Assembly (NCBI GenBank): GCA_938074565.1
Contig: CALJEQ010000012.1
Span: 13,247-77,246 of the forward strand
DNA from: an uncultured Alkaliphilus sp.
GTDB lineage: Bacteria; Bacillota; Clostridia; Peptostreptococcales; Natronincolaceae
Reading direction: 5' to 3'
Length of the DNA stretch: 64,000 bases
The notes below the pieces were generated by a model. The model saw nothing but the letters and a program-made list of their open reading frames with translations. It was not told the origin of the DNA and ran no database searches. Of the stretch, positions 1 to 43,045 are shown one piece after another (the stretch's first letter is position 1; each line of letters begins with the position of its first letter). Position numbers and translations under genes: made by a program.

Positions 1-3000
1 CCTACTGGTGCAGCTGAAGCCACATCAATATTAATAGCAGGATTATAAGTTACTCCATTAATTTCATTTACACCTTGAGTTGAAACTGGAATCATGTTTC
101 GTATTACTGGCGGTCTAAATGGGTTGGTGTAGGTAAATTGTGATGTGGCAAATTTACCATCATAATTAAATACCCTTAATTGTTTTTGCCCTACTTCACT
201 GGAAGGTGGTGTAACTAATGTTATTCTTTGTTCCCCTTCCACTTGTTTAATAACCCCTAATCTTCTTGTAACCACTAGGTCATTATTTTTAACTTCTATT
301 TTTATTTGTTCATCTGCCATATTGTTTGTGGTGGAGTCAACATCCTTCCACGGAACTCTTACAACAATAAACTCTTCCTCTTCTACTATCTTAAATTGAT
401 TAGTGGGATTTTCTAAACCTTCTTTATAAACCATCAATTGATTACCTTCTACTGCTTCTTTATAGTATAGGGTTATGTTGTAATCGTCCACATAGGCGTT
501 ATAACGAACAATCACATCCCCCAACTTTACAGTAGCTTGCCCTGAAAGAACGTCTGCTTTGCCTGTTTCATTTCCAAAGACCACATGAAGCCCTTTTTCT
601 ACAAAATCTTTACCTACAATAGTTATTTCACTACCACCTAAACGACTACCTTGATTAGGTAATACTTGGCTAATTGCAGGTTGTTTAGAACGATACTCAA
701 ACCCATTTTTTAAGTTGGCAGTAGCACCATCAAAATTTATAACGGTTACATCTGCCCTACCTGCAATGTTAGGAGGGGTTTTTTCTACTATAATAAGGTC
801 TGTGGTTTCAATTTCACCATAGGTTTCTCTTGGAGGAAGTACAAAAGTAATATCTTCTTTTGGTACTTTTACTCCTCCAAAATAAACAGCTGGTAACTGT
901 TGGTCATCTGTTCCAAAGTCTTTAGCTCTAAAACTTACTCCAGAAATTAAAACCCGATCTCCCCCTGCTGTATTTCCTGTGTTGGGGGTTAACTTAGTAA
1001 TTTTAGCATCGTAGCCTGGATTAACATACTTATATCCATTATAGAGGGTGAAAGAACCTCCATCGTTATTTAGTATTGTAACAGGAACTGTTGCTGCATT
1101 TTTACTACCCATGTCTTCACCATAGGGTGGTACATAAACCCATAGCATTCTAGCATTATTACTTCTTCTGTAAACCTGTGCTTGTTGTGTTCCAAAGTAA
1201 ACTTTTACATTATCATAGAAGTTTTCCCCTTGAATCTCTACAATGTTTCCACCCCTATAGTCTCCTAAGTTAGGTTCTACTTTGCTGATGATAGGGCGGG
1301 TTACAACATCTATAAATCTAAATGATTTATTTAATTGATGACTTCCCAAGTCTGGGTTTACCACCTTTACGTCTAATTGAGCATTCATAAAAAATGGTTT
1401 TTGTAAATCTTTAGGGTCTGGAATTAAAACATATATGGTTTCATTGTCTACTACTGCAACATTACCTCCATAGGTTTTTAAAACCTCTCCATTTGGCCCA
1501 TAAATAGGCATTTCATCTTCAAAGTAATCATTAATAAAATCTCTTAATTCTAATGGTGCCAGTGGATCATCGTTTTCTCTAAAATATCCTCTATTAACGT
1601 CTTTTCCATCAATCCACACAGTTGTTCCAATCTTATAGGCATCGGTTTGACCTGTGGGGTTTGGTGTAAAAAATCCAGTTCCTTTAATGATTACTAAACT
1701 ACCCTTACCCCCTACATTAGGAATAATTCTCTGAATTTGTGGTTGACTAAAGGTTTGTACATATTCAAAAGGAGCTGACACAAATCCTCCATCGGGATTA
1801 ATTACCTGTAAAAATGTTTTACCTGCCCTTCCAGCGGGAGAGTTAAAGGTAATTGTTCCTTTTGCAACGTCTATTGTTCTATTTTGTATAACCTCTCCAT
1901 CTATGGTAACAACAGCTCCTGGTTGAAAATTAAAACCTTTCACGACAATTTGTTGCGGTTTTCCCACCGCCACCTTATCTGGTGTAACTGAAGTTATGGT
2001 TGGTTTTAAAATAGTTCCTTCTCCTGGAGTAACATATTCAAATAGGTTATCTTTTCTATCTCTTCCCCCTAATGCACCTAATGGACTGGGGTTGTAAACA
2101 ATTACATCGGCATAACCATTATAAAGTTGGTAACCTTTTGGAATTGTAAACTTAATTTTCGTTCCTGATCTAATTGCCTGTCCATCTACAACCGTATTAT
2201 TAGCTGTCAAAACAATTAAGTCAAAATCTGCCTCTTGAGCTTCTCCCAAATTAGTTCCATCGGCTCTATCACTATAATAGTATACCGTTTTACCCTCTTG
2301 GTTTCTTGTAATAATTTTGTACTTTTCTGCTGCGTTACCTACACTTTCACTACCAATAATAATCATTGGATAGTAACGCTTTCCACCAATACTTTCCACC
2401 CTAAAGTTACTACCTTCTATTGTAGCTGTAATATCTTCTGTGAAAGGTCCTTTATTAGGTACTAATCTAGTAATATTTGGCGTGGATATATCGGGTTCAA
2501 ATTCAAATTGCACTTTAGACTGTGAAGCATATGGGGCTTCTTCTACAATATAGTTTAATTCAGTAACAACGCCACCTACTAACCTATAATGTACTGTTTC
2601 TGTTCTTACTGAAATAACATATTTTCCTGCCTGACTTACCTTGTCGGTTCTAACCCTAAGGGTGGAGACATCCTGTGGGGCTAATAAAGGTAGCTCTACT
2701 ATATCTGCTGGTAAACCTATCATAATGTTGATCTTTCTTTCTACAAACTCCCCATTATTTAGTGTGTACCTCAAATACTTGGCTTTTGGGTCTATTTCTT
2801 TAAAAAATTTAAGGTTAGCATTATTTGTATCAATTGATGTAACATGGTCTTGATGCCTAATACCTTTAATGTTGTTTACTGGCACAATATTTCTAACCCT
2901 TAAATGGTCTATTGCCTTTTCTTCATTGGTAAAGGCTTTTGCTGGGTCAACATCCATTACCTCTAAAACTGACCCTTCTGCCACTACATAAATAAAGTTG

Positions 3001-4028
3001 ATATTATGGGTGTAGGTATCACCAAAATAGTTTTGAATAACGATGGGTTTTGGTCCTGCTGTATCTAATTTAGGTACAACAATTTCTAAACCAGTTTTTT
3101 TCTCAGCCCCTTCATAGTAGGTAAAGGTTCCGTCACTAAAGCCACCTGTATTTCTTACAGCTTCTTTACCTCCAATAAATACCTTTGTACCACTATCTAA
3201 TAGGGCGGTTGTTTTCTTTGCTTTAATTCTTACTATACTTCCTGCTGTTCCTTCTAAAGGAGAAATATTAACTTCTTCTAAATCTAGTGGGTTGGCTACA
3301 CTAATGGCCCTTTTTACAACGTATCTTAATTCCACATTGCTACCACTGTTTTTTTCAAAGACTAAGTTTTGATTATTTCCCGCTGCAATATTAACGGTGT
3401 CTGTTCCTATACTAATTTTTCTTCCATCTTCTACAACATTGTAGTCAATTGTATTTGTTACTGTTAAACCTGTGGTAATTCCTAGTTTGTAATCATTATT
3501 TAAATAGCTTCCTTCCAACGTGAACTCTTTTCCTTTAATAACTGTAATCGGCCATGATGCAGGCGACATAGTATTAATGGTATCCACCTTCATAAAGTTA
3601 AAATCGTTTCCTGGCAATTCGAAGGGTTTACTCATATCTTCAGCATGGGTTACGCCATTTCTAACAACTCTAAAATAGACGGTGCCCGTTGCCCCAAATA
3701 TACTCTGTATACTTTGCCCTCCACCATCAGGAACGTAGGCTATGTTACCACTGTTAATTACTCTTAGTTCCTCTTTAGGTAAGGTTTTCTTAATAGAACC
3801 ACCTTGCACTACATGGATGGCATCGATGTTGGTCATGGGAAAACCATTGAAGATTACTTGATAATTTGTCTTTAATTGTCCATTAATGACTTCAACTTCT
3901 TCCCTTATGGTGATTTTGTTGATGACAACAGGTTCATCTGCTGCATAAACATTGGTAATGGGTATGTTACCAAATAATAAGTTGAAAATCATAAGTAATA
4001 ATGTGAATACTGCTGTTTTTTTCCTCAT
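1..4028 (-). CDS. Large secreted cell-surface protein with tandem IPT/TIG (Ig-like) repeats. The 5' end is complete; the 3' end runs off the left edge of the window (partial, more than 1340 aa).
   Basis: It is absent from the ORF track because there is no stop codon in the window. The minus-strand ATG at 4028-4026 has a GGAGG (revcomp of 4036-4040) 7 nt upstream. The N-terminus MRKKTAVFTLLLMIFNLLFGNIPITNVYA looks like a signal peptide. The frame is open at both ends: I checked codon by codon at the left edge (...NGVTYNPAINIDVASAAPVG) and at the start. No competing ORF of 60 aa or more is listed here apart from two short antisense ones. The repeated modules carry the IPT/TIG signature, for example RPIISKVEPNLGDYRGGNIVEIQGENF, AKITKLTPNTGNTAGGDRVLISGVSF, QPAISQVLPNQGSRLGGSEITIVGKDF and KPTITSVTPDKVAVGKPQQIVVKGFNF. 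Confidence 0.75.
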   Translation of the reverse strand, partial: MRKKTAVFTLLLMIFNLLFGNIPITNVYAADEPVVINKITIREEVEVINGQLKTNYQVIFNGFPMTNIDAIHVVQGGSIKKTLPKEELRVINSGNIAYVPDGGGQSIQSIFGATGTVYFRVVRNGVTHAEDMSKPFELPGNDFNFMKVDTINTMSPASWPITVIKGKEFTLEGSYLNNDYKLGITTGLTVTNTIDYNVVEDGRKISIGTDTVNIAAGNNQNLVFEKNSGSNVELRYVVKRAISVANPLDLEEVNISPLEGTAGSIVRIKAKKTTALLDSGTKVFIGGKEAVRNTGGFSDGTFTYYEGAEKKTGLEIVVPKLDTAGPKPIVIQNYFGDTYTHNINFIYVVAEGSVLEVMDVDPAKAFTNEEKAIDHLRVRNIVPVNNIKGIRHQDHVTSIDTNNANLKFFKEIDPKAKYLRYTLNNGEFVERKINIMIGLPADIVELPLLAPQDVSTLRVRTDKVSQAGKYVISVRTETVHYRLVGGVVTELNYIVEEAPYASQSKVQFEFEPDISTPNITRLVPNKGPFTEDITATIEGSNFRVESIGGKRYYPMIIIGSESVGNAAEKYKIITRNQEGKTVYYYSDRADGTNLGEAQEADFDLIVLTANNTVVDGQAIRSGTKIKFTIPKGYQLYNGYADVIVYNPSPLGALGGRDRKDNLFEYVTPGEGTILKPTITSVTPDKVAVGKPQQIVVKGFNFQPGAVVTIDGEVIQNRTIDVAKGTITFNSPAGRAGKTFLQVINPDGGFVSAPFEYVQTFSQPQIQRIIPNVGGKGSLVIIKGTGFFTPNPTGQTDAYKIGTTVWIDGKDVNRGYFRENDDPLAPLELRDFINDYFEDEMPIYGPNGEVLKTYGGNVAVVDNETIYVLIPDPKDLQKPFFMNAQLDVKVVNPDLGSHQLNKSFRFIDVVTRPIISKVEPNLGDYRGGNIVEIQGENFYDNVKVYFGTQQAQVYRRSNNARMLWVYVPPYGEDMGSKNAATVPVTILNNDGGSFTLYNGYKYVNPGYDAKITKLTPNTGNTAGGDRVLISGVSFRAKDFGTDDQQLPAVYFGGVKVPKEDITFVLPPRETYGEIETTDLIIVEKTPPNIAGRADVTVINFDGATANLKNGFEYRSKQPAISQVLPNQGSRLGGSEITIVGKDFVEKGLHVVFGNETGKADVLSGQATVKLGDVIVRYNAYVDDYNITLYYKEAVEGNQLMVYKEGLENPTNQFKIVEEEEFIVVRVPWKDVDSTTNNMADEQIKIEVKNNDLVVTRRLGVIKQVEGEQRITLVTPPSSEVGQKQLRVFNYDGKFATSQFTYTNPFRPPVIRNMIPVSTQGVNEINGVTYNPAINIDVASAAPV

Positions 4029-4467
4029 ATGCTGGCCTCCTATTTCCTTTTGTTAATTATTAAAATATTTCCCTTTAATTTTATTTTCTCTATCTATATA
4101 TGTAAATAAAATCTATTCCTCTATACAACTAATTTATCGGTTAAATTACCATTAATTTATAGTAGTATAAAATGGAAAGTTGATTGCTTTTTAATATTAT
4201 ATCATAGACACATTGCAAATTCTGTTTCTGTTATGCATTTGTCATTAAATTGAAACATTATTACTATTAATAAATATTTTTTTCTACCAAAAACATCAAA
4301 AACAGCCATTTAATTATACTTATCTGTTCATTATTCTCTTAGTTAATTGTGTCATAATTTAATATTTAAAATAAAAAATAGAAAGTACTACAGTTTTTTC
4401 CTTTTCAGTACGATATTATTAATATATAACTAACACAACTTTGTGATTATCCAAGGAGGTATAATTA

Positions 4468-5859
4468 ATGCGTAAAAAAATACTAATTACCACCATCACT
4501 GTTTTATTAATCTCTACAATTTTCACCACTCCTTCTTTTACCCAAAGCTACAGTCGGTCAATTACGGCTTGGTTTAATAATTTAACCCTTGAAGTGGATG
4601 GAGTAAAGGCAAACCTAAAGAACGAGCCTTTTATCTACAACAATGAGGTATACGTCCCTTTAAGGGAGTTATCTGACCATGTTATGTTTAATTACCAGCA
4701 CGATGAAAAGTCCAAAACCCTTAAACTAAAAACAAATCGAAACAATAATAAGGCAGTGGATAATTATCAGCATAATTATGAAGTAATAGACTTACGTAAC
4801 CAGATAGTTGAACTTCAAAAAGAAATTGATAAATTACAGGATGGCAAATTTCCATACCGTAAAATTTCAACTACATTGGAAATGGAAAACTACCTAAAGG
4901 AACACTTTAAAAAGTTAAAAGATGTTCCTATGAACATTCGTTTTAGACATAAAGGTGGTAATAAATACGATTTCAGTGCAGTATTTAGTTCTAATGATTT
5001 AAACAAATGGAACAGTCTAAGCCGTAGGGATATTGAAAACTGGGTGGATGACATTTTCTATGTAACTAGAGATCTATTTAACCGAAATGCTGAAATTGAA
5101 GGTGACTTCCGATTAACAGCCTTTAATACTGGTATTAGATATGCAAACTATTGGACAAGAGGTAACCGTTTGTTCTTTGACTATAAATTAGCAGATCACA
5201 AAAAGAATCAAATGGTGGATGGTACAAGAATTGAAAATGCTTTAAATCTACAAATTAAACACTATCACAATGCTTCTTTTACTTATAAAGTATTTGTAAA
5301 TCAAAGCGATATTGATATTGTTGTTTCTTATAACCATAACTTTAACAATTGGACCCCAGCATTAAAAATGCAATATCTAACCCGTTTAAGAACAGAGGTA
5401 GAAAAACTTTATGATAGTGTAAGTGTAAATGGAAGGGTGGTTAATTCAGTTACTAACCAAACCGAACTTCGATTCAGCTTTGAAGGTGAGGATATTCGTT
5501 CAGTTGACCTACTAAATGACTTAGAAAAACACTTAAATCTTCACTATAAACACTTCTATTATGGAGGACATACCCTTACTTTTACTTATCGTGTTAATGA
5601 AAGCTACAGTGGTTCTTTTGAAGTTATTATGGAAGGTAACTTCACCGAAAATAGTGAAGCATGGCAACAAGTTAGAAACGGTGGCGAAGTTGCTTTAAGA
5701 TACTTTATTCAAAGTAGTTTTGATCATATTGAGTCTGTTTGGGATGTTGATATTTTCGGTACAGTGAGGGACAAAAACTTAAACTCTATTGGAGATGTGG
5801 AGTATTTTAGTACTTCTCAATATGGTATCCGTATTGTTCAGCCTATTATTTTTCAGTAA
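4468..5859 (+). CDS. Secreted protein with a copper-amine-oxidase-like N-terminal stalk domain, a coiled coil and three internal ~100-aa repeats. Function unknown.
   Basis: AAGGAGG lies 8 nt upstream of the ATG. The signal peptide is MRKKILITTITVLLISTIFTTPSFTQS. A stalk-domain-like segment reads LEVDGVKANLKNEPFIYNNEVYVPLRELSDHV, and the coiled coil reads EVIDLRNQIVELQKEIDKLQ. The three repeats begin LEMENYLKEHFKKL, IENALNLQIKHYHN and LLNDLEKHLNLHYKHF. Confidence 0.6.
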   Translation: MRKKILITTITVLLISTIFTTPSFTQSYSRSITAWFNNLTLEVDGVKANLKNEPFIYNNEVYVPLRELSDHVMFNYQHDEKSKTLKLKTNRNNNKAVDNYQHNYEVIDLRNQIVELQKEIDKLQDGKFPYRKISTTLEMENYLKEHFKKLKDVPMNIRFRHKGGNKYDFSAVFSSNDLNKWNSLSRRDIENWVDDIFYVTRDLFNRNAEIEGDFRLTAFNTGIRYANYWTRGNRLFFDYKLADHKKNQMVDGTRIENALNLQIKHYHNASFTYKVFVNQSDIDIVVSYNHNFNNWTPALKMQYLTRLRTEVEKLYDSVSVNGRVVNSVTNQTELRFSFEGEDIRSVDLLNDLEKHLNLHYKHFYYGGHTLTFTYRVNESYSGSFEVIMEGNFTENSEAWQQVRNGGEVALRYFIQSSFDHIESVWDVDIFGTVRDKNLNSIGDVEYFSTSQYGIRIVQPIIFQ

Positions 5860-5941: not shown

Positions 5942-6502
5942 TTGACAAAAAAAATAATTGGGTTAACCATCTGTTTTATCCTTCTATTCAGCTTTGTTAG
6001 TGTTTCTGGGAACACCTCCAATCTTCAATTGGAGGCAGGGGAATATTTAAGGGACTTAAGAATTTATAGGGGATACAGTGATGGTTCCCTCGGTTTAGAA
6101 AGACCCATCACCCGTGCCGAATTTGCCACAACAATGGTTAGAATAGTTGGCAATGATGGTGTTTCACAGGGAAACTCTGTAACACCAACCTTTAACGACG
6201 TAAAATCTACCCATTGGGCTTATCAAGATATTAGTATAGCTGCTACTAATCAATGGGTAAAGGGTTATGCTGATAAAACCTTTCGACCCCAAGGAAACAT
6301 TACCTACGCAGAAGTTATTACTGTCCTAGTTAGGGTATTAGGTTACGAAAGTCAAACTACAGGACAATGGCCTGAAAGTCATTTAAAAGTTGCCAGTGAT
6401 CTTGGAATTACAAAACATTTAACCCTTAGTCCAAATCATGTGGTTAATCGCGGTGAGGTGGCAATATTACTTAAAGAAGCTCTGTTTATTGAGTTAAAAT
6501 AA
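5942..6502 (+). CDS. Small secreted S-layer-homology (SLH) domain protein
   Basis: The start codon is TTG and the signal peptide is MTKKIIGLTICFILLFSFVSVSG. SLH-type motifs include RPITRAEFATTMVRIVG and FNDVKSTHWAYQDISIAATNQWVKGYADKTFRPQGNITYAEVITVLVRVLGY, plus a third degenerate copy (VNRGEVAILLKEAL). Confidence 0.7.
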   Translation: MTKKIIGLTICFILLFSFVSVSGNTSNLQLEAGEYLRDLRIYRGYSDGSLGLERPITRAEFATTMVRIVGNDGVSQGNSVTPTFNDVKSTHWAYQDISIAATNQWVKGYADKTFRPQGNITYAEVITVLVRVLGYESQTTGQWPESHLKVASDLGITKHLTLSPNHVVNRGEVAILLKEALFIELK

Positions 6503-6523
6503 TTTATAACGAAATAAAAGTAT

Positions 6524-6560
6524 AAAAAACTCCTTTCAAGTTACTTGAAAGGAGTTTTTT
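6524..6560. terminator. Bidirectional intrinsic terminator between the convergent SLH gene and the small peptide gene
   Basis: The hairpin is aaaaaactcctttcaag / ttac / cttgaaaggagtttttt. It has an A-tract on one side and a T-tract on the other. Confidence 0.75.
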
Positions 6561-6590
6561 ATACAAAACGTTTTTAGTATTTTTTAAGCT

Positions 6591-6752
6591 TTATCCCTTA
6601 CCTGGGATTGGGTCTTGTAATGGTATTATTGTATGGGTTATATTCGTGGTAGTGTCATCACTATTATATTCTTTCGTCATAAAAAACCCGACGCTGCTTA
6701 TTAATATAGCAGAAATAATTAGTGATACCACTATACTCTTCAGTCTATTCAA
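6591..6752 (-). CDS. Unannotated 53-aa exported pro-peptide, candidate signalling-peptide precursor paired with the upstream HTH-TPR regulator
   Basis: I translated it by hand codon by codon: TTG start (revcomp of 6750-6752), then MNRLKSIVVSLIISAILISSVGFFMTKEYNSDDTTTNITHTIIPLQDPIPGKG, then a TAA stop (6591-6593). GGGGGGA lies about 6 nt upstream of the TTG. The N-region is basic (NRLK), followed by a ~17-residue hydrophobic core and a polar C-terminal tail. The ORF begins 25 nt after the regulator stop on the same strand and ends 30 nt before a terminator. It falls below the length cut-off of the ORF track. An in-frame GTG at 6767 would give 58 aa but has no SD sequence. Confidence 0.5.
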   Translation of the reverse strand: MNRLKSIVVSLIISAILISSVGFFMTKEYNSDDTTTNITHTIIPLQDPIPGKG

Positions 6753-6777
6753 TTTATGTCCCCCCACGTTGTCGTTG

Positions 6778-8100
6778 TTAGTTTAGATAGTCATGTCTCA
6801 TTCTAGTTACGTATTCCATACATTTATTAGTTTCTTCTAATGCAAAATAAACTTCGATAAAAAAGCTATTTAATTCACTGGTTTTATCTTTAATATTATT
6901 TTCCAAAATAAACTTTTCAACTTTTTGTAAGTGGTTTAATGCACTATAATAGTCCTTTAGTTTCAAATGCATTTGAACTGATGCAAAGTGTAATTCCACT
7001 ACAATATCCTTCATGGCAACCTTTTCAGCTATAATAAGTCCATTACTTAATATTTTTAGTACTTTTTCACTTTCGCCTATCGCCATATAACATTTTGCCT
7101 GTTGTAAATATAAATTAGCTATATAAACTAGTTCTACTCTGTTTTTTAATTCAAAAGCCATATCAATATATTCCAACGCTTTACCGATTTCCCCTATTTC
7201 TCTATAAAGAACAGTTAGGTTATCATACACTAAAAACAAAGTATTTGGTTCTAATCTTTCCTTTTTGTTTAATAGTCTTTGATATAACTTTTCAGCTCTT
7301 TCATGGTTTTTTAAGTCTCTGTAAGTATTGGCTTCCACCAACATTACATTATCATTATAAAAATGAAAAAGAGGGTCATCCCATTTTAATTCTTTAAATA
7401 TATTGATTTGTTGAATCGCCATATCGTATTTATTGATTTTACGATAACAAAGTATTAAATTATAAACAGACTCAACTTTTAGTCTATTAATGTTATCTGT
7501 TTCATACTCCACTGCTGTTTCATAGCACTTTGTATAGTAAATTATAGCCTGATCCACTAACATCATCATATGATAAGCTGCACCAATAAAGTTGTACATA
7601 CGGGCTACTTCACCATAATCTTTTCCCTCTAAATAATATTCTAAAGCATGGGAATAATCCTTCAAGGCACTGTTATAACGAAAACTGTAATAATAAAATT
7701 CCCCTCTTAATACATGAAGATCTGCTACTTCTTTTTTCAAGCCCCATTGGTTTGCCAACTCCACCATTTTTTGTATAGAACGATTAATAAGCTTCTCGTC
7801 CACACTATTAGCTTTAATAATTGGTTGTAGTTTCTCTATCTCTTCACCAATGATTCTTCTAGCTTGGTCCATTTCCGTTTCCATTAAATACTGTGGGGTT
7901 ATTTCCTTCCCCAAGTTTGCATAATACCGATTTAAACAATTGGCAACAATCTTAGCTGTATTCCAGCTTAAACTACGTTTATTGTTCTCAATCATACTGA
8001 CCAAGCTTTTCGTTACTTCTTCATTAGTTATATCATCTTGTTTTAATCCAAGATCACAACGAAGTTTTTTTATTTTTTCTCCTGCACTTAATATTTCCAT
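6778..8100 (-). CDS. XRE-type HTH plus tetratricopeptide-repeat transcriptional regulator (RNPP-like: PlcR/NprR/Rap/PrgX architecture)
   Basis: The N-terminal HTH reads GEKIKKLRCDLGLKQDDITNEEVTKSLVSMIENNKRSLSWNTAKIVANCL. The remaining ~370 aa show repeated TPR-like A/Y/L patterns (YNSALKDYSHALEYY, GEVARMYNFIGAAYHMM, DQAIIYYTKCYE, IGKALEYIDMAFEL, YLQQAKCYMAIGESEKVLKIL, DYYSALNHLQKVEKF). At 440 aa it is similar in size to NprR-type receptors. Confidence 0.8.
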   Translation of the reverse strand: MEILSAGEKIKKLRCDLGLKQDDITNEEVTKSLVSMIENNKRSLSWNTAKIVANCLNRYYANLGKEITPQYLMETEMDQARRIIGEEIEKLQPIIKANSVDEKLINRSIQKMVELANQWGLKKEVADLHVLRGEFYYYSFRYNSALKDYSHALEYYLEGKDYGEVARMYNFIGAAYHMMMLVDQAIIYYTKCYETAVEYETDNINRLKVESVYNLILCYRKINKYDMAIQQINIFKELKWDDPLFHFYNDNVMLVEANTYRDLKNHERAEKLYQRLLNKKERLEPNTLFLVYDNLTVLYREIGEIGKALEYIDMAFELKNRVELVYIANLYLQQAKCYMAIGESEKVLKILSNGLIIAEKVAMKDIVVELHFASVQMHLKLKDYYSALNHLQKVEKFILENNIKDKTSELNSFFIEVYFALEETNKCMEYVTRMRHDYLN

Positions 8101-8360
8101 TTAATCCTATACTCCTTTCACAACAAAAAAAATTTACAAGATAATGTTCTTTCTGAGTCTAGGTTAATAATAATTCAATAAATATTATTATATATTCCAT
8201 TCCTTATAACAAATATACTAAATATTTTGCTAGATTTCAATCTTTTTAATCGTTTTTTTGAATTTATAATAATTAATATAAAGTCAAGTATTTTGTAAAT
8301 TTTTTTGTTTCTAATTAATGGATAACCATAAATATAATGTAAATATAGTATTATGTAAAT

Positions 8361-8408
8361 TACAAAACCCTTTGAAAAAAGTTATATATTATACTTTTTA
8401 TCTAAGGG
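8361..8408 (-). terminator. Probable spoIIE terminator (interrupted stem)
   Basis: On the minus strand: CCCTT..AAAAAGT-loop-ACTTTTT..AAGGG, followed by TTTTGTAATTT. It lies 25 nt after the spoIIE stop. Confidence 0.4.
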
Positions 8409-8432
8409 CTTATTTTTATTGTTATTTTTTTA

Positions 8433-10799
8433 TTACGCTCTCGTCTTCCAAATCTTCGTTACTAGTACCGTCATATCATCTTTTGGCTCATTTCCAGTAT
8501 ATTGAAGTGCTTGATATAATATCCTATCTGCTAATTCTTGTGGATTTCTAGTAGTGGATTGATTTAAATAATTCAGCACCCAATCTTCTCCTCCTGCTTT
8601 ATTAACTTCTAATATACCATCTGAAATCATAACGATAAAATCTCCTTCATTTAAATCTCTATAGTTTTTTTCCACCTCAATTTCTGACAATATACCAATT
8701 GGTAGACTTGAGGGGTTAATAATTTCTACTTCCCCATCATTTCTTTTAATATATCCAGGAGCACTACCAATTTTAGTAAAATCAGCTCTACCCTCATGTA
8801 GATCAATCATGGTCATATCAATAGTGGAAAATATTTCTTCTGAAGATTTTAACATTAGCATTGAATTAATTGTTTTAATGGTCATTTCTTGCCTAAAACC
8901 TGCCTCTATCATCTTTTCCAACATTGCAATGGTGGCACTAGACTGTAAGTGGGCTTTTTCACCCGTTCCCATACCATCACTAAGGGCAATTAAAAACTCG
9001 TTATTTTTAATATTCATAAAACTATAGGAATCACCTGATAATAAATTACCTTCGTTGGTGGCTCTAGCTACTTTTGTTATTGCAGCAAACCTATTTGCCT
9101 CCACTAAAGTAAAACTACAAGTCCCTTTACTATGGGGGTTACTACATCTATGTATTTTTTTAGTTAATTGATACCCTAAAGCTTTTGAAATGACAGGTAC
9201 ATATCTTTCCACACAATCTTGCCTTCCATAACAAGGTCTCCGTTCTATAGTAATCTCTAGTTTTCCCTTTTCATTAGTAGACACCAGCAAACGATTTACC
9301 GATAACCCTGCCTTATCCAATTCAACATAAATATTATCTTCCAGTTCTGTATCAAATAATATTTCGCTGTTCACTTCTTCTGCAAGGGATTGTATTCCAT
9401 TAGCCATCCCTTTTAACTGTTCTCCCACCAATTCTTTACCTTCCAATAATTTTTTCTTCCAAATCATATTTAAACGACTATATTCATGTAATGTAATCAT
9501 TTTTTCAATTACTTCCCTAGCTTTAACACATCTTTTTCTTATTTGCTCCGGCAAACTCCGTTGGTCTAACTCAGCTCTTGTTTCTATTAATAATAACAGG
9601 TCCGTCATCCCTTGATATGTATTGTAAAAGTTGGTTTGCCAACAATTTCTCCTCATTCCGCAGTCAGAACAAACCCCTTCTGCCATTTTTTCTATTAGTT
9701 TTGAAAGGTCGTCCTGTCCAAAAGCTTCCACCCGTTCTGCCATATTTTCAAAAGTAACGGATAATTCAGTAAAAGTTTGAGAGAAATCTGAAAGTTTTTC
9801 ATATATTTGTTTTTTTATTTCATCCCCATAAGTTTTACTGGTATGCATAACCCCCAATGCTGGACTGCTATATTTTTGTAATTCTAAAATCCATGTTGTA
9901 GGAATAACTAAAAACAAAAAGAAAGCACCAATAATTTCTTTCATTTGAATTAAAACTTCATAATATCCATTAATATAAAAGGTTAATATGGTATTTCCTA
10001 AAAGAAAACCAAAGGCACTTCCAAACTTTCCTAAGTCTTTAAAAATCCCTGCTAATAACCCCGAAAACCCAAAAATTCCAATGATAGTAGGTGGCATTCC
10101 ATTGGTGGACATACTGGTAATCAAACCTAAAGTAACTCCCACAGAAGCCCCTACACTGGCTCCTCCATTATATGCAAATATGATGGTAATAAGTATTCCC
10201 AACAAATTCTTTAGCGAAACACCCAACAAATCTATATCATTTACTCCTGATAAAGTTAATGCCATGAGTATTGCTACACAAATTATTTCTTCTGTTGCTA
10301 ATATTTTACGTTGGCTTTTTTGAAGAGCTATAGGTATTGCATAGCAGGAAATATAAACAATTACGAAAATAACCATTGCTTCAAAAGTAACCATCATTAA
10401 ATCATATAGATAAAAATTAGAAAATATAACGAATAGTGACGCCACTACAAAATAAATCGTTCCACTGATAAAAGATACTGTTAGTATTTTATATTTCCTA
10501 GTATTTAAGAAATATGTAAAAGTTATTATAATTGCAACCAATGCAATTCCATAAGGTAGGCTTCCATTTACGCCTTGTACCGTCATAATACCTAATAAAG
10601 TTGTTACCCCCACCGATAAATACTTTTTGTTTTTATAACAGAGGGCTGTATAAAAGCCAATTCCGAAAGGTGTTAAACTTTCCAATATACCTGCTCTACC
10701 CAATAAAAAAGCTACTATATGCAAAAGTAGCAGACTTTTATTACTGAACAGTTCTAGAATCCTTTTTTCATGTAGATATGTAGTTGATCTTTCTGCCAT
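8433..10799 (-). CDS. spoIIE: Stage II sporulation protein E (membrane PP2C phosphatase)
   Basis: 788 aa. The N-terminal ~320 aa form about 10 hydrophobic helices. The C-terminal PP2C/SpoIIE domain contains GDSYSF...ALSDGMGTGEKAH...MISDGILE. The gene sits at the same position as spoIIE in B. subtilis. Confidence 0.9.
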   Translation of the reverse strand: MAERSTTYLHEKRILELFSNKSLLLLHIVAFLLGRAGILESLTPFGIGFYTALCYKNKKYLSVGVTTLLGIMTVQGVNGSLPYGIALVAIIITFTYFLNTRKYKILTVSFISGTIYFVVASLFVIFSNFYLYDLMMVTFEAMVIFVIVYISCYAIPIALQKSQRKILATEEIICVAILMALTLSGVNDIDLLGVSLKNLLGILITIIFAYNGGASVGASVGVTLGLITSMSTNGMPPTIIGIFGFSGLLAGIFKDLGKFGSAFGFLLGNTILTFYINGYYEVLIQMKEIIGAFFLFLVIPTTWILELQKYSSPALGVMHTSKTYGDEIKKQIYEKLSDFSQTFTELSVTFENMAERVEAFGQDDLSKLIEKMAEGVCSDCGMRRNCWQTNFYNTYQGMTDLLLLIETRAELDQRSLPEQIRKRCVKAREVIEKMITLHEYSRLNMIWKKKLLEGKELVGEQLKGMANGIQSLAEEVNSEILFDTELEDNIYVELDKAGLSVNRLLVSTNEKGKLEITIERRPCYGRQDCVERYVPVISKALGYQLTKKIHRCSNPHSKGTCSFTLVEANRFAAITKVARATNEGNLLSGDSYSFMNIKNNEFLIALSDGMGTGEKAHLQSSATIAMLEKMIEAGFRQEMTIKTINSMLMLKSSEEIFSTIDMTMIDLHEGRADFTKIGSAPGYIKRNDGEVEIINPSSLPIGILSEIEVEKNYRDLNEGDFIVMISDGILEVNKAGGEDWVLNYLNQSTTRNPQELADRILYQALQYTGNEPKDDMTVLVTKIWKTRA

Positions 10800-40431: not shown

Positions 40432-42846
40432 TTATTTTACTTGTATTAAATAACCTTTTGTTTCAACTTTTCCAGCCTTTTCTACATAAACAAACACTGC
40501 ATAGTCTCCTGCTGGAACAACTTCACCATTTAAAGTACCGTCCCAAGTGAAGTCATTGTATTGTTTTGGTACATTATCATATACACCAATGTCTCCTAAA
40601 TAGTTTCCTACTCTACCACCTTTAAATTCGTACAACCAAAATTCTAAAACTTCTGCACCACCTGGTAAATATGTTGACAAATTATATTTTCCATCAGCTG
40701 TTTGTGAGAAAGTAAAGTGTGTTAGTCTTGGGTAATCTGGTTCTTGTACGAAAAGAATTGTTGGTACTTCTACTACTTCTTTTCCATCACTAACTTTAAT
40801 TGTACCCTCATAGTAACCTGCCTCTAATTGAGAAGCGTCTACTTGTACTTTGAAGTTTACTTCTTGTGCACTATTCCCCTTAACTTTAGTATTGTTACTG
40901 GTCATTACCTTTATCCCTTTAGGATTACCAGCAAACTCAACATCAAAAGTATATTTCTTGCTTTCATTAGATAAGTTTTTAATTGTAAATTTCTGACCTT
41001 CAACTTGTTTGTCCACTCCATTAGCAAATACACCGAAAGAATGACTTCCTGGAACTACCAATGTTTTAGCATTAATAGCTTCAACCACTCTAACACTACC
41101 TGCCCCTTGAGTGTTATGAGGATATGGCTTACCAGTTGCTGGGTTAACTAATGTTTCAGCTGTATTCATTAAAGCTGCCTTTACATCATCTACTCCCCAA
41201 TGAGGGTTAGCTTGTAAAACTAAAGCTGCTACACCAGCTACATGAGGTGATGCCATACTTGTTCCTTGCTTAGAACCATATTGTCCATCTCTTATTGTAC
41301 TGTTAATGTTTACTCCTGGTGCTGATACATCTGGTTTAATCATCCAAGTATCAACAACTGGTCCTCTTGAAGAGAAATCACCCATTGTTTCTCCTACACT
41401 TGCCACTTTATTAAATTCAAAAGATACTTCCTTGTTTCCTGCTTCTAATTCAGCCAACATCTTTTGTCCATCTACACCAGAAAGCTTAACTGTTGGAAGA
41501 GAGATTCCTGCAACAAAATGCTCAATTTGTCCTGCTGCATTATTATAAATAACTGTTGCTACTGCTCCTGCCGCTTTAGCATTGTCAGATTTCTCAACAA
41601 ATGGAATTGCTCCACGGCTAATTAAAGCAACTTTACCAGTTAAATCTAAACCTACAAAATCGCCTGCAAGACCTAAACCAACATGAACAAACTCATATTT
41701 ATTTCCATTTAACGCTAATAATTCTTTATCACTTGGGAAACCCATTACTTCTGTACTCATATAATTAACTTCTTCTGTTGTTCTTACTTCACCATTATAT
41801 ATGTTATATGGTAAAGCTGTAGCTCCTACAGAAATAGCTCTTCTTGAAGTTCCAGGAGAACCAACTGTCCAGTTATTTGGTCCACTATTACCATTAGAAG
41901 TAATAGCTACTACACCTTCTGCCATAGCCCAATCTAATGCAATACTAGTTGCCCAGTCTGGGTTATTAAGGGTATTTCCTAAAGATAAATTCATAATATG
42001 TACGCCATCTTGTACTGCTCTTTCGATTCCTGCTACTACTCCTTCTGTAGAACCACTACCACCTGGTCCAAGTACACGATAAGCTAATAGTGTTGCTTCT
42101 GGAGCAACCCCTTTAATTAATCCATTAGCTGCCACTGTACCTGCTACGTGAGTACCATGGTCTGTAGCTGCTCCTCTTGGGTTTCCTGGTGATGTTTCTT
42201 GTGGGTCATTATCGTTATCAACCATATCCCAACCTTTATAGTCTCCAAAAGCATGAACTAAATCAGGGTGAGTATAGTCTACTCCTGTATCAAGGATAGC
42301 TACTTTAATACCTTTTCCTGTGAAACCCGCATCCCACGCGTCTTTTGAACCTATATAAGGTGCACTACTTAACATTTGTGGGCTGAATACTTCTTCATCT
42401 AACGTATACTCGCTTACTACCGCAGCTGTATATTCAACATTTGGATATACTGCCTTTACTCCTTCTACATTTAGTAGATTTGGAATTTCGTTACTAGGTA
42501 ACTCTAGTGCGAAGCCAGAAAACAAGTATTCATACTCTCTCTTAACTTGTACACCTTTTACATTTTTAGCAACTTGATTTACCACTTTACCTCTAGCTGC
42601 TTTAAGGGTTGCTTTATCTTGCTTTTTACCTTTATGTTTAGCTGCAACTACCGAATCTTCCTTCAATTCAACGATAACAGTTGTTAATTCTGAAGAAGTA
42701 AGATCAAACTCACCAAATAATTCAGCTTCTAAAACAACTGATTCTACTGATACCTTTGTATTAGCAAATGTTCCTAAAGAAAAACTAGAAAATACCATTG
42801 CCATAGATAGTAATAACAACATTAGTCTTGCATTACGTTTTTTCAT
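40432..42846 (-). CDS. Secreted subtilisin-family (S8) serine protease with an inserted PA domain and C-terminal Ig-like domains
   Basis: The catalytic triad motifs are VAILDTGVDYTHPDL, TDHGTHVAGT and GTSMASPHVAGVAAL. The signal peptide is MKKRNARLMLLLLSMAMVFSSFSLGTFA. The start is set at the ATG at 42846 (AAGGAAGGTG upstream); the track ORF adds 34 non-signal codons. Confidence 0.9.
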   Translation of the reverse strand: MKKRNARLMLLLLSMAMVFSSFSLGTFANTKVSVESVVLEAELFGEFDLTSSELTTVIVELKEDSVVAAKHKGKKQDKATLKAARGKVVNQVAKNVKGVQVKREYEYLFSGFALELPSNEIPNLLNVEGVKAVYPNVEYTAAVVSEYTLDEEVFSPQMLSSAPYIGSKDAWDAGFTGKGIKVAILDTGVDYTHPDLVHAFGDYKGWDMVDNDNDPQETSPGNPRGAATDHGTHVAGTVAANGLIKGVAPEATLLAYRVLGPGGSGSTEGVVAGIERAVQDGVHIMNLSLGNTLNNPDWATSIALDWAMAEGVVAITSNGNSGPNNWTVGSPGTSRRAISVGATALPYNIYNGEVRTTEEVNYMSTEVMGFPSDKELLALNGNKYEFVHVGLGLAGDFVGLDLTGKVALISRGAIPFVEKSDNAKAAGAVATVIYNNAAGQIEHFVAGISLPTVKLSGVDGQKMLAELEAGNKEVSFEFNKVASVGETMGDFSSRGPVVDTWMIKPDVSAPGVNINSTIRDGQYGSKQGTSMASPHVAGVAALVLQANPHWGVDDVKAALMNTAETLVNPATGKPYPHNTQGAGSVRVVEAINAKTLVVPGSHSFGVFANGVDKQVEGQKFTIKNLSNESKKYTFDVEFAGNPKGIKVMTSNNTKVKGNSAQEVNFKVQVDASQLEAGYYEGTIKVSDGKEVVEVPTILFVQEPDYPRLTHFTFSQTADGKYNLSTYLPGGAEVLEFWLYEFKGGRVGNYLGDIGVYDNVPKQYNDFTWDGTLNGEVVPAGDYAVFVYVEKAGKVETKGYLIQVK

Positions 42847-43045
42847 TTTCCCAACACCTTCCTTATAATTTTTTTGATTTTCTCTTTGTAAAGAAAAATA
42901 TGTAACAAAACCTTTTCTTACATCAACCCCTTCAATTTTATTAAACAAACAAATAAATAATTGTGTTATATAAAATATTCGTTATGTAAAAATAAAATCC
43001 TGCTTTATTTTTCAGAAATTTCATAAGATATAATCAATAAACAAA

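Follow-up and report, generated by a model that had tools for sequence, protein, structure and literature searches.

A putative RRNPP-type receptor and pro-peptide gene pair in an uncultured Alkaliphilus, related to the Qsr and RstA regulators

In Firmicutes, RRNPP systems govern processes as diverse as sporulation, competence, toxin production, solvent formation and phage lysogeny. A stretch of 64,000 nucleotides from an uncultured Alkaliphilus sp. of the Natronincolaceae (contig CALJEQ010000012.1, positions 13,247 to 77,246; the whole stretch is called the window here) raises the question of whether a 440-aa regulator with a helix-turn-helix (HTH) domain and tetratricopeptide repeats (TPRs), and a short open reading frame (ORF) directly behind its gene, form a peptide receptor and its signalling pro-peptide. 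The original prediction, made from the sequence of the window, read the pair as an RNPP/Qsr-like receptor with its cognate pro-peptide, and our results supported it through a conserved family of downstream peptides with a shared motif and by the fact that the regulator is homologous to QsrH and RstA. In this study, we think it quite likely that the locus encodes a peptide signalling cassette of the RRNPP type, similar to Qsr and RstA. The kind of system is well known, and what is new is a local branch of it in Alkaliphilus and its relatives.

RRNPP receptors have a C-terminal TPR superhelix of 5–9 repeats and, in Rgg, NprR, PlcR, PrgX, Qsr and RstA but not in Rap, an XRE-type HTH at the N-terminus. 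Such a superhelix, such an HTH and an adjacent small pro-peptide gene were all found at this locus. In a tblastn search of 7.3 Gb of plasmid records, the regulator matched a gene on pSOL1 of C. acetobutylicum and rstA of C. difficile with E values of 3e-12 and 2e-13, respectively. We take the pSOL1 match to be CA_P0149, that is, qsrH, from its adjacency to phospholipase C and not from the record itself. The pairwise BLASTP alignments, which started from residue 1-2, gave E values of 1e-19 for QsrH and 8e-21 for RstA at 23% identity each, and the hhalign comparisons gave 99.7% for both (E 1e-26 over 416 columns for RstA and E 3e-25 over 377 columns for QsrH). The N-terminus MEILSxGEKIKKLR is common to the regulator and RstA and almost identical in the two, and the QsrH gene is followed by its own 39-aa QspH downstream. 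Judged from sequence, these alignments are decisive in marking the regulator as a full-length homologue of RstA and QsrH and in placing it among the RRNPP receptors of the clostridial Qsr/RstA branch. Studies have shown that the Qsr/Qsp systems are peptide-responsive in experiments and that the active form is a C-terminal heptapeptide (PMC7376267). RstA is an RRNPP-family repressor with no adjacent pro-peptide, and its signal was still unidentified in 2024 (PMC11115286). The 25 kb to either side of C. difficile rstA contained no comparable small ORF that was signal-bearing and Pro-tailed. The 163-kb record NZ_CP149720.1 (L043), deposited as a C. difficile plasmid, carries dnaA, dnaN, gyrBA, rpmH-rnpA, rstA and ribosomal protein genes, and it looks like a chromosomal origin region.

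The regulator consists of an XRE-type HTH (approximately residues 1–63), a helical linker (64–101) and approximately 17 TPR helices (102–434). Its N-terminal region can be aligned with the HTH domains of RstA and QsrH and forms a short helical bundle (residues 6–63) in the model, and many homologues of the regulator carry PF12844/PF01381. The Pfam TPR families above cut-off were TPR_12 (2.3e-16), TPR_1 (7.6e-11), TPR_14, TPR_7 and TPR_2, and the AlphaFold2 (AF2) model, with a predicted local distance difference test score (pLDDT) of 92.3, was confident and all-helical, with approximately 17 paired helices over residues 102–434. The phmmer search of the regulator against PDB chains returned designed or generic TPR proteins only. 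The profile search of PDB added Rap H, Rap J, Rap F and Rap-pLS20 with E values from 1e-8 to 1e-6, and neither search gave a sequence-level match to PlcR or NprR. The HTH plus multi-TPR regulator had thus been described correctly at the outset, and all of its coordinates were accurate.

The small ORF could be read from GTG (6591..6767, minus strand, 58 aa) or, five codons further down and in frame, from TTG (53 aa, MNRLKSIVVSLIISAILISSVGFFMTKEYNSDDTTTNITHTIIPLQDPIPGKG). The 53-aa product from TTG is likely the true one, because the GTG lacks a Shine-Dalgarno sequence and every homologue starts M-K/N-x-x-K. The uncalled 53-codon ORF with a G-rich Shine-Dalgarno sequence and a TTG start was found where it had been placed, on the same strand and 25 nt after the regulator (TAA stop 6778-6780; TTG 6750-6752). 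Both exact products, of 53 and 58 aa, were absent from a collection of 15 billion proteins; therefore, the gene has not been called. The 53-aa product has an n-region MNRLK (+2), an h-region from S6 to T26 with 21 uncharged residues, and a polar tail with the C-terminus ...IIPLQDPIPGKG. A heuristic marked these n- and h-regions, with a possible cleavage site S20-V21-G22/F (the slash marks cleavage). A comparably basic and hydrophobic N-terminus was seen in none of the 133 other ORFs of 40–75 aa in the window, and in the six frames of the 64 kb only the small ORF ends in the form [DNE]PxPx(1-5)-stop. On these grounds, and from the recurrence of homologous ORFs at related loci and among database proteins (below), we regard the small ORF as a real gene and more than a chance ORF.

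The same arrangement was then found at related loci. From species-representative genomes of Alkaliphilus/Natronincolaceae, 38 loci with relatives of the regulator were fetched, together with two more; L038, which held a 57-residue fragment only, was left out, and the set comprised 40 loci including the window. A downstream ORF of 47–69 aa on the same strand was present at 16 of the 40 regulator loci (15 besides the window). These ORFs usually begin 13–120 nt past the regulator stop, and once 1.2 kb past it, and mostly have AGGAGG or GGGGG ribosome-binding sites. Their products have an n-region of +2 to +4 and an uncharged h-region of 12–23 residues (12–15 in most members), many have canonical AxA signal-peptidase sites (for example, FASA/H and VTEA/I), and the family C-terminus is [D/N/E]-P-x-P-x-x-x-stop, which reads DPIPGKG in the window. 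Examples of the tails are ...HTIQENPNPVRD, ...TTYSDPNPMID, ...GGGDPDPIDW and ...NTLGDPKPLSN. Two of the 16 deviate from the motif (DPDAKIG and DSNPIKY), and one has it 11 residues from the end. A terminal W occurs in a few peptides (L019, L021, P0056 and P0060) and in the remnant at L031. When the 402 kb of loci were read in six frames, 19 stop-delimited segments carried the strict motif, and 16 of them lay downstream of a regulator on the same strand.

The exhaustive HMMER search with the peptide profile in 1.84 billion representative proteins gave 23 hits, approximately 20 of which were peptides of 49–66 aa with the same architecture and tail. In the close relatives P0048, P0054 and P0056, no changes occur in the signal region or in the last nine residues, and the linker is variable and contains indels. 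Such a pattern is expected of a pro-peptide with an active C-terminus. By this conservation of the C-terminal motif and by analogy with the Qsp heptapeptide, the mature signal of the window would be the C-terminal 7–9 residues, approximately (LQ)DPIPGKG. At L016, two tandem pro-peptide genes follow one regulator, 5340-5513 (...TTYSDPNPMID) and 5655-5813 (...TTLSDPNPTTE), and they may represent a duplicated signal with diverged tails. Downstream of the paralogue at L018, a 44-aa ORF (5383-5517) with a hydrophobic N-terminal part and a different tail, ...GEGMPIVDALTYWL, may be a diverged type of pro-peptide.

The paralogous peptides are deposited as 'hypothetical protein', and one has the UniRef name 'Phr family secreted Rap phosphatase inhibitor'. 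This name is automatic, and its basis is no more than a weak N-terminal match to the Phr_nterm model TIGR04429, which matched 1 of 15 peptides (E 0.03) and not the window peptide. NCBIfam and Pfam have no model for these peptides, no relatives were found in the phage collection, and the literature searched contained neither a description of them nor a paper linking Alkaliphilus with RRNPP or quorum sensing. Screens of the RRNPP_detector type target exactly such a receptor/pro-peptide layout (PMC10075063); Alkaliphilus is not mentioned in the text of the RRNPP_detector paper or in its supplements, which were possibly incomplete. The statement that the peptide has no described counterpart can therefore be kept for the literature searched and must be given up for the databases, which hold its paralogues. 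As far as their sequences tell, the peptides are a subfamily of approximately 20–35 known members, restricted to Alkaliphilus/Natronincolaceae and nameless in the libraries and papers searched.

The cassette resembles the Qsr/Qsp systems of C. acetobutylicum (QssA-H; Kotte et al. 2020, PMC7376267) and C. saccharoperbutylacetonicum (QssR/QssP) in several respects. The receptor has an XRE-type HTH and approximately 7–8 TPRs in approximately 430–440 aa, the next gene is a same-strand ORF of 39–66 aa whose product starts with basic and hydrophobic residues and has a conserved, Pro-containing stretch at its very end, and several paralogues occur per genome, with the HTH as their most conserved part. 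As in Qsp, L(-9) and G(-8) often stand before the motif (compare QspB, LGAEPTWGW). In contrast, the motif here is [DNE](-7)-P(-6)-x-P(-4)-x-x-x with a mostly acidic or small last residue, whereas Qsp has P(-5) and W(-1). The Qsp signature is a conserved L, P(-5) and W(-1) at the C-terminus of peptides of 39–50 aa (PMC7376267), and the window tail PLQDPIPGKG departs from it, with prolines at -6 and -4 and no W. Because the Qsp signature is not matched, we regard the [D/N/E]PxPxxx peptides as a distinct subfamily by sequence, which is of the Qsp style and has a different motif. The hosts are different as well (Peptostreptococcales/Natronincolaceae here and Clostridium there), and the identity to QsrH is only 23%.

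With RstA, the regulator shares the full-length homology, the near-identical N-terminus and an AT-rich inverted repeat in the leader; unlike RstA, it has an adjacent pro-peptide gene, and the two are 23% identical and not syntenic. NprR of the Bacillus cereus group (HTH plus 9 TPRs, approximately 420 aa) likewise has its pro-peptide gene, nprX, immediately downstream and co-transcribed, but no sequence-level match to NprR was obtained in the PDB searches. The active NprX peptide is internal to its pro-peptide and not C-terminal. PlcR/PapR of the B. cereus group and Rap/Phr of Bacillus also have a TPR receptor, and their known signals (PapR7 and the Phr pentapeptides) are the C-terminus of a Sec-exported pro-peptide; many paralogues per genome, orphan receptors included, are a further likeness to Rap-Phr. 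However, PlcR is shorter (5 TPRs) and its peptide motif is unrelated, and Rap has no HTH and acts by protein-protein contact, with Phr motifs that are unrelated to those found here.

Close homologues of the regulator (E < 1e-60) were found only in Alkaliphilus and in metagenome-assembled genomes (MAGs) of related Natronincolaceae. The numbers of regulator paralogues in A. transvaalensis, A. hydrothermalis and one MAG were at least 10, 6 and 8, respectively. The mean pairwise identity among the paralogues was 58% in the HTH and 34% in the TPR region, and nearly invariant columns were concentrated in residues 7–76; within the TPR domain, E256, N258, R261 and N265 are invariant. In a quick neighbour-joining tree, rooted with QsrH and without support values, RstA is sister to the whole Alkaliphilus family, and the peptide-bearing loci are scattered through the expanded clade. 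The peptide tails cluster with the regulator clades, as TIQ(E/Q)(D/N)P..., EPxP..., (D/N)PNP(M/I)(D/E) and DPDPIDW, and three loci (L015, L026 and L031) contain degenerate, visibly truncated peptide remnants. As a reading of these sequences, duplication and divergence of an ancestral receptor-peptide pair, in which the peptide gene was lost more than once, would fit. With an HTH this conserved, the paralogues may act on the same DNA targets; together with the diversified TPRs and tails, the HTH suggests several private signalling channels onto similar DNA sites. One clade (L022, L025, L028 and L032-L037; regulator approximately 4001-5310) never has a peptide gene and apparently has one copy per genome. 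A putative dCTP deaminase gene (dcd; MILSGKEIK..., read from the translation) stands after its regulator at least in L028, L034, L035 and L037, and in these organisms this dcd-linked orphan clade may play the role of RstA.

For the window, we propose a mechanism of the following kind, drawn from what is established for RRNPP systems. The regulator and peptide genes would be transcribed together, and the pro-peptide would be exported via Sec by its basic, hydrophobic N-terminus, with signal-peptidase cleavage possibly at S20-V21-G22/F. The polar tail would be trimmed outside the cell to the C-terminal 7–9-mer and re-imported by an oligopeptide permease (Opp) encoded elsewhere. The peptide would then bind in the TPR groove and switch the DNA binding of the N-terminal HTH, and in this way the regulator probably also controls its own gene, through the AT-rich inverted repeat of the leader.

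Several results weigh against a signalling cassette. The HTH_19 (8.9e-5) and HTH_3 (0.004) matches of the regulator were below the curated Pfam cut-offs, the top Foldseek matches in PDB were generic eukaryotic TPR proteins (LGN etc., E ~1e-7), and no Opp genes were found within the 64-kb window. A canonical AxA cleavage site is missing from the window peptide, and its hydrophobic stretch of 21 residues might serve as a membrane anchor. Orphans make up 20 of the 40 family loci. The peptide ORF is absent downstream of both syntenic orthologues, in A. hydrothermalis and A. transvaalensis, and in A. hydrothermalis the regulator leads directly into the homologous terminator, as if approximately 190 nt were cleanly absent. 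As for the fold, RapF (4i9c) and apo NprR (5dbk_B) ranked 37 and 41, and NprR had the best TM-score (0.53/0.64) among the listed PDB matches. NprR and RapF were thus among the significant matches, but not in the leading places. Because generic TPR proteins lead and the RNPP members stand this far down, the fold of the model alone is not diagnostic.

The syntenic orthologues (67% identical in A. hydrothermalis and 63% in A. transvaalensis, with the common order Ppx-SpoIIE-regulator-SLH-CuAmOx_N1) are the main argument for a regulator that functions as an orphan in the manner of RstA and responds to the peptide of a paralogue or to none, with the adjacent ORF as a relic or a dispensable gene. 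The test put forward with the original prediction, a short ORF conserved downstream of orthologous regulators, thus fails for these two, and the conservation is seen across the paralogues instead. Because both orthologues (L001 and L002) keep the regulator without the ORF, the peptide gene is dispensable in these two lineages, and the regulator can persist without a private peptide. The frequency of orphan loci, the degenerate remnants and RstA itself, which has no adjacent peptide or identified signal (PMC11115286), also speak for this explanation. We nevertheless believe that it is unlikely for the window, where the ORF is intact, has a correctly spaced G-rich Shine-Dalgarno sequence and a complete signal-like N-terminus, and ends precisely in the family motif; the true remnants elsewhere are visibly truncated, and the tails cluster together with their own regulators. 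Where the peptide gene would be in A. transvaalensis (L002, 5693-6046), there is an unrelated 117-aa ORF outside the peptide family, with a signal- or transmembrane-like N-terminus and a charged, coiled-coil-like tail, MKMPKKKISKILIIPVLAGLLIF....

It is very unlikely, in our opinion, that the small ORF encodes a membrane-anchored or secreted small protein in place of a re-imported signal, be it a surface-associated peptide or a protein that partners or inhibits the regulator at the membrane. Most family members have canonical signal-peptidase sites and h-regions of 12–15 residues, the conservation is focused on the last 7–9 residues, as in RRNPP pro-peptides, with a linker that varies, and the partner gene is homologous to the peptide-responsive Qsr receptors; the window copy itself, with its long uncharged stretch and no AxA site, and a neighbourhood rich in exported and SLH proteins speak for such a protein. 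A chance ORF in an AT-rich spacer behind a generic TPR transcription factor unrelated to peptides has next to no probability. No gene finder in the public collection called the ORF, and TPR folds are generic, but ORFs with the same motif stand at 15 other loci and in approximately 20 database peptides, and the window contains no second motif-ending ORF and, among the 133 other ORFs of 40–75 aa, none that is signal-like; this explanation is effectively refuted. The signalling cassette is thus the reading that we prefer.

The locus has value for annotation, as the pro-peptide gene is missing from public protein sets. The natural series of cognate receptor-peptide pairs and orphans is useful for the study of specificity evolution, and it offers a comparative foothold on RstA, which is the nearest characterised relative together with Qsr. 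We also considered the idea that [D/N/E]-P-x-P pro-peptides are the ancestral ligand class of RstA-type receptors in Peptostreptococcales and that the orphans (the spoIIE-linked orthologues, the dcd clade and, by extension, C. difficile RstA) sense paralogous or unlinked peptides. We hold this to be doubtful. If it were true that such peptides typify RstA-type ligands, they would provide a sequence template (a short Sec pro-peptide with a Pro-rich C-terminal 7–9-mer), and this template, with tractable receptor-peptide pairs, could help to work out the RstA ligand (PMC11115286).

Table 1. Features of the regulator-peptide locus in the window (positions counted from the first nucleotide of the window).
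Feature	Position	Strand	Basis
Receptor/regulator gene, 440 aa	6778..8100	minus	ORF; Pfam TPR and HTH matches; AF2 model; RstA/QsrH homology
HTH DNA-binding domain, residues 1–63	7912..8100	minus	Most conserved part among paralogues
TPR domain, residues 102–434, presumed peptide-binding	6799..7797	minus	Pfam, AF2, Foldseek and Rap profile matches
Pro-peptide gene, 53 codons plus stop, TTG start	6591..6752	minus	ORF; Shine-Dalgarno; N-terminus heuristic; homologous peptides
Shine-Dalgarno-like GGGGGGA	6759-6765	minus	6 nt 5' of TTG; AGGAGG/GGGGG at 7–9 nt in paralogous genes
Predicted mature signal (LQ)DPIPGKG, C-terminal 7–9 residues	6594..6620	minus	C-terminal motif conservation; Qsp heptapeptide analogy
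Predicted intrinsic terminator closing the regulator-peptide unit	6520-6564	minus	20-bp hairpin, -29.8 kcal/mol, z = -7.0 against shuffles
Predicted sigma-A-type promoter of the cassette, TTGAAA-17-TATATT	8212..8240	minus	10 of 12 positions; kept in both syntenic orthologues
AT-rich inverted repeat in the conserved leader	8165..8190 (26 bp)	minus	11-nt arms, 91% complementary, 4-nt spacer
Weak promoter-like site inside the regulator 3' end	6893..6920	minus	9 of 12 positions; count of such sites in the region at shuffle level

The promoter-like site and the leader of approximately 170 nt are conserved across three species (the window, A. hydrothermalis and A. transvaalensis), and the repeat arms AATAAT/ATTATT are kept in the syntenic orthologue loci L001 and L002. 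RstA represses its own promoter via a 29-bp AT-rich inverted repeat (PMC6414698). Because the leader repeat recalls that of the rstA promoter, we infer autoregulation, with the repeat as a candidate operator. Directly after it, all three syntenic species have an invariant block, ACCTAGAC(T/C)CAG (8150-8162 in the window; approximately 3860-3900 in L001/L002). The motif TTTCTGA/TCAGAAA is enriched upstream of the paralogous regulators, with 8 occurrences seen and 1.2 expected, some of these regions being related by recent duplication. The window leader holds one half-site, TTTCTGA at 8150-8156 on the plus strand, within the invariant block. Because of the recent duplications and the single half-site, TTCTGA as an operator is kept as a lead only. 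It is speculative that the weak promoter-like site within the regulator gene might drive the peptide gene separately.

The small ORF is followed by a strong terminator, as had been described. The scan scored the minus strand only; because an A-run and a T-run flank the stem, it is plausible that the hairpin also ends transcripts from the other side, such as those of the SLH gene that converges on it (5942-6502, plus strand). The adjacent surface-protein island was also found as described and consists of this SLH protein, a CuAmOx_N1-domain protein (4468-5859) and a large ORF of at least 1350 aa (3-4052, minus strand), which has a signal-like N-terminus, MRKKTAVFTLLLMIFNLLFG..., and extends past the first position of the window, for which reason the ORF list lacks it. 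The identity of the small ORF as a precursor of a ribosomally synthesised and post-translationally modified peptide was rejected, with no modification or transport genes adjacent.

The cassette lies within a conserved mfd-spoVT-yabM-yabN...yabQ-yabR-ppx-spoIIE region. The original prediction placed it upstream of spoIIE, but spoIIE (8433-10799) is on the same minus strand and the cassette is downstream of it, with its own predicted promoter. Because of this promoter and because the spoIIE promoter is approximately 2.7 kb away, the position does not point to spoIIE as an output, and spoIIE was rejected on this topology as the regulatory output that had been suggested. The spoIIE stop is followed by a large-loop hairpin, AAGCCCUU...AAGGGUUUUGUAAUUU, that has a U-tract (z -1.9; 8340-8436, minus strand), and A. 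transvaalensis has ACCCTG...CAGGGT at the matching place, which looks like a compensatory change. This hairpin is probably a weak spoIIE terminator, and some read-through into the cassette is possible. Bacillus Phr peptides are matured by extracellular subtilisin-like proteases. The window encodes a secreted subtilase with an I9 pro-domain and S8 and PA domains (40432-42948, minus strand), which is approximately 32 kb from the cassette and unlinked to it.

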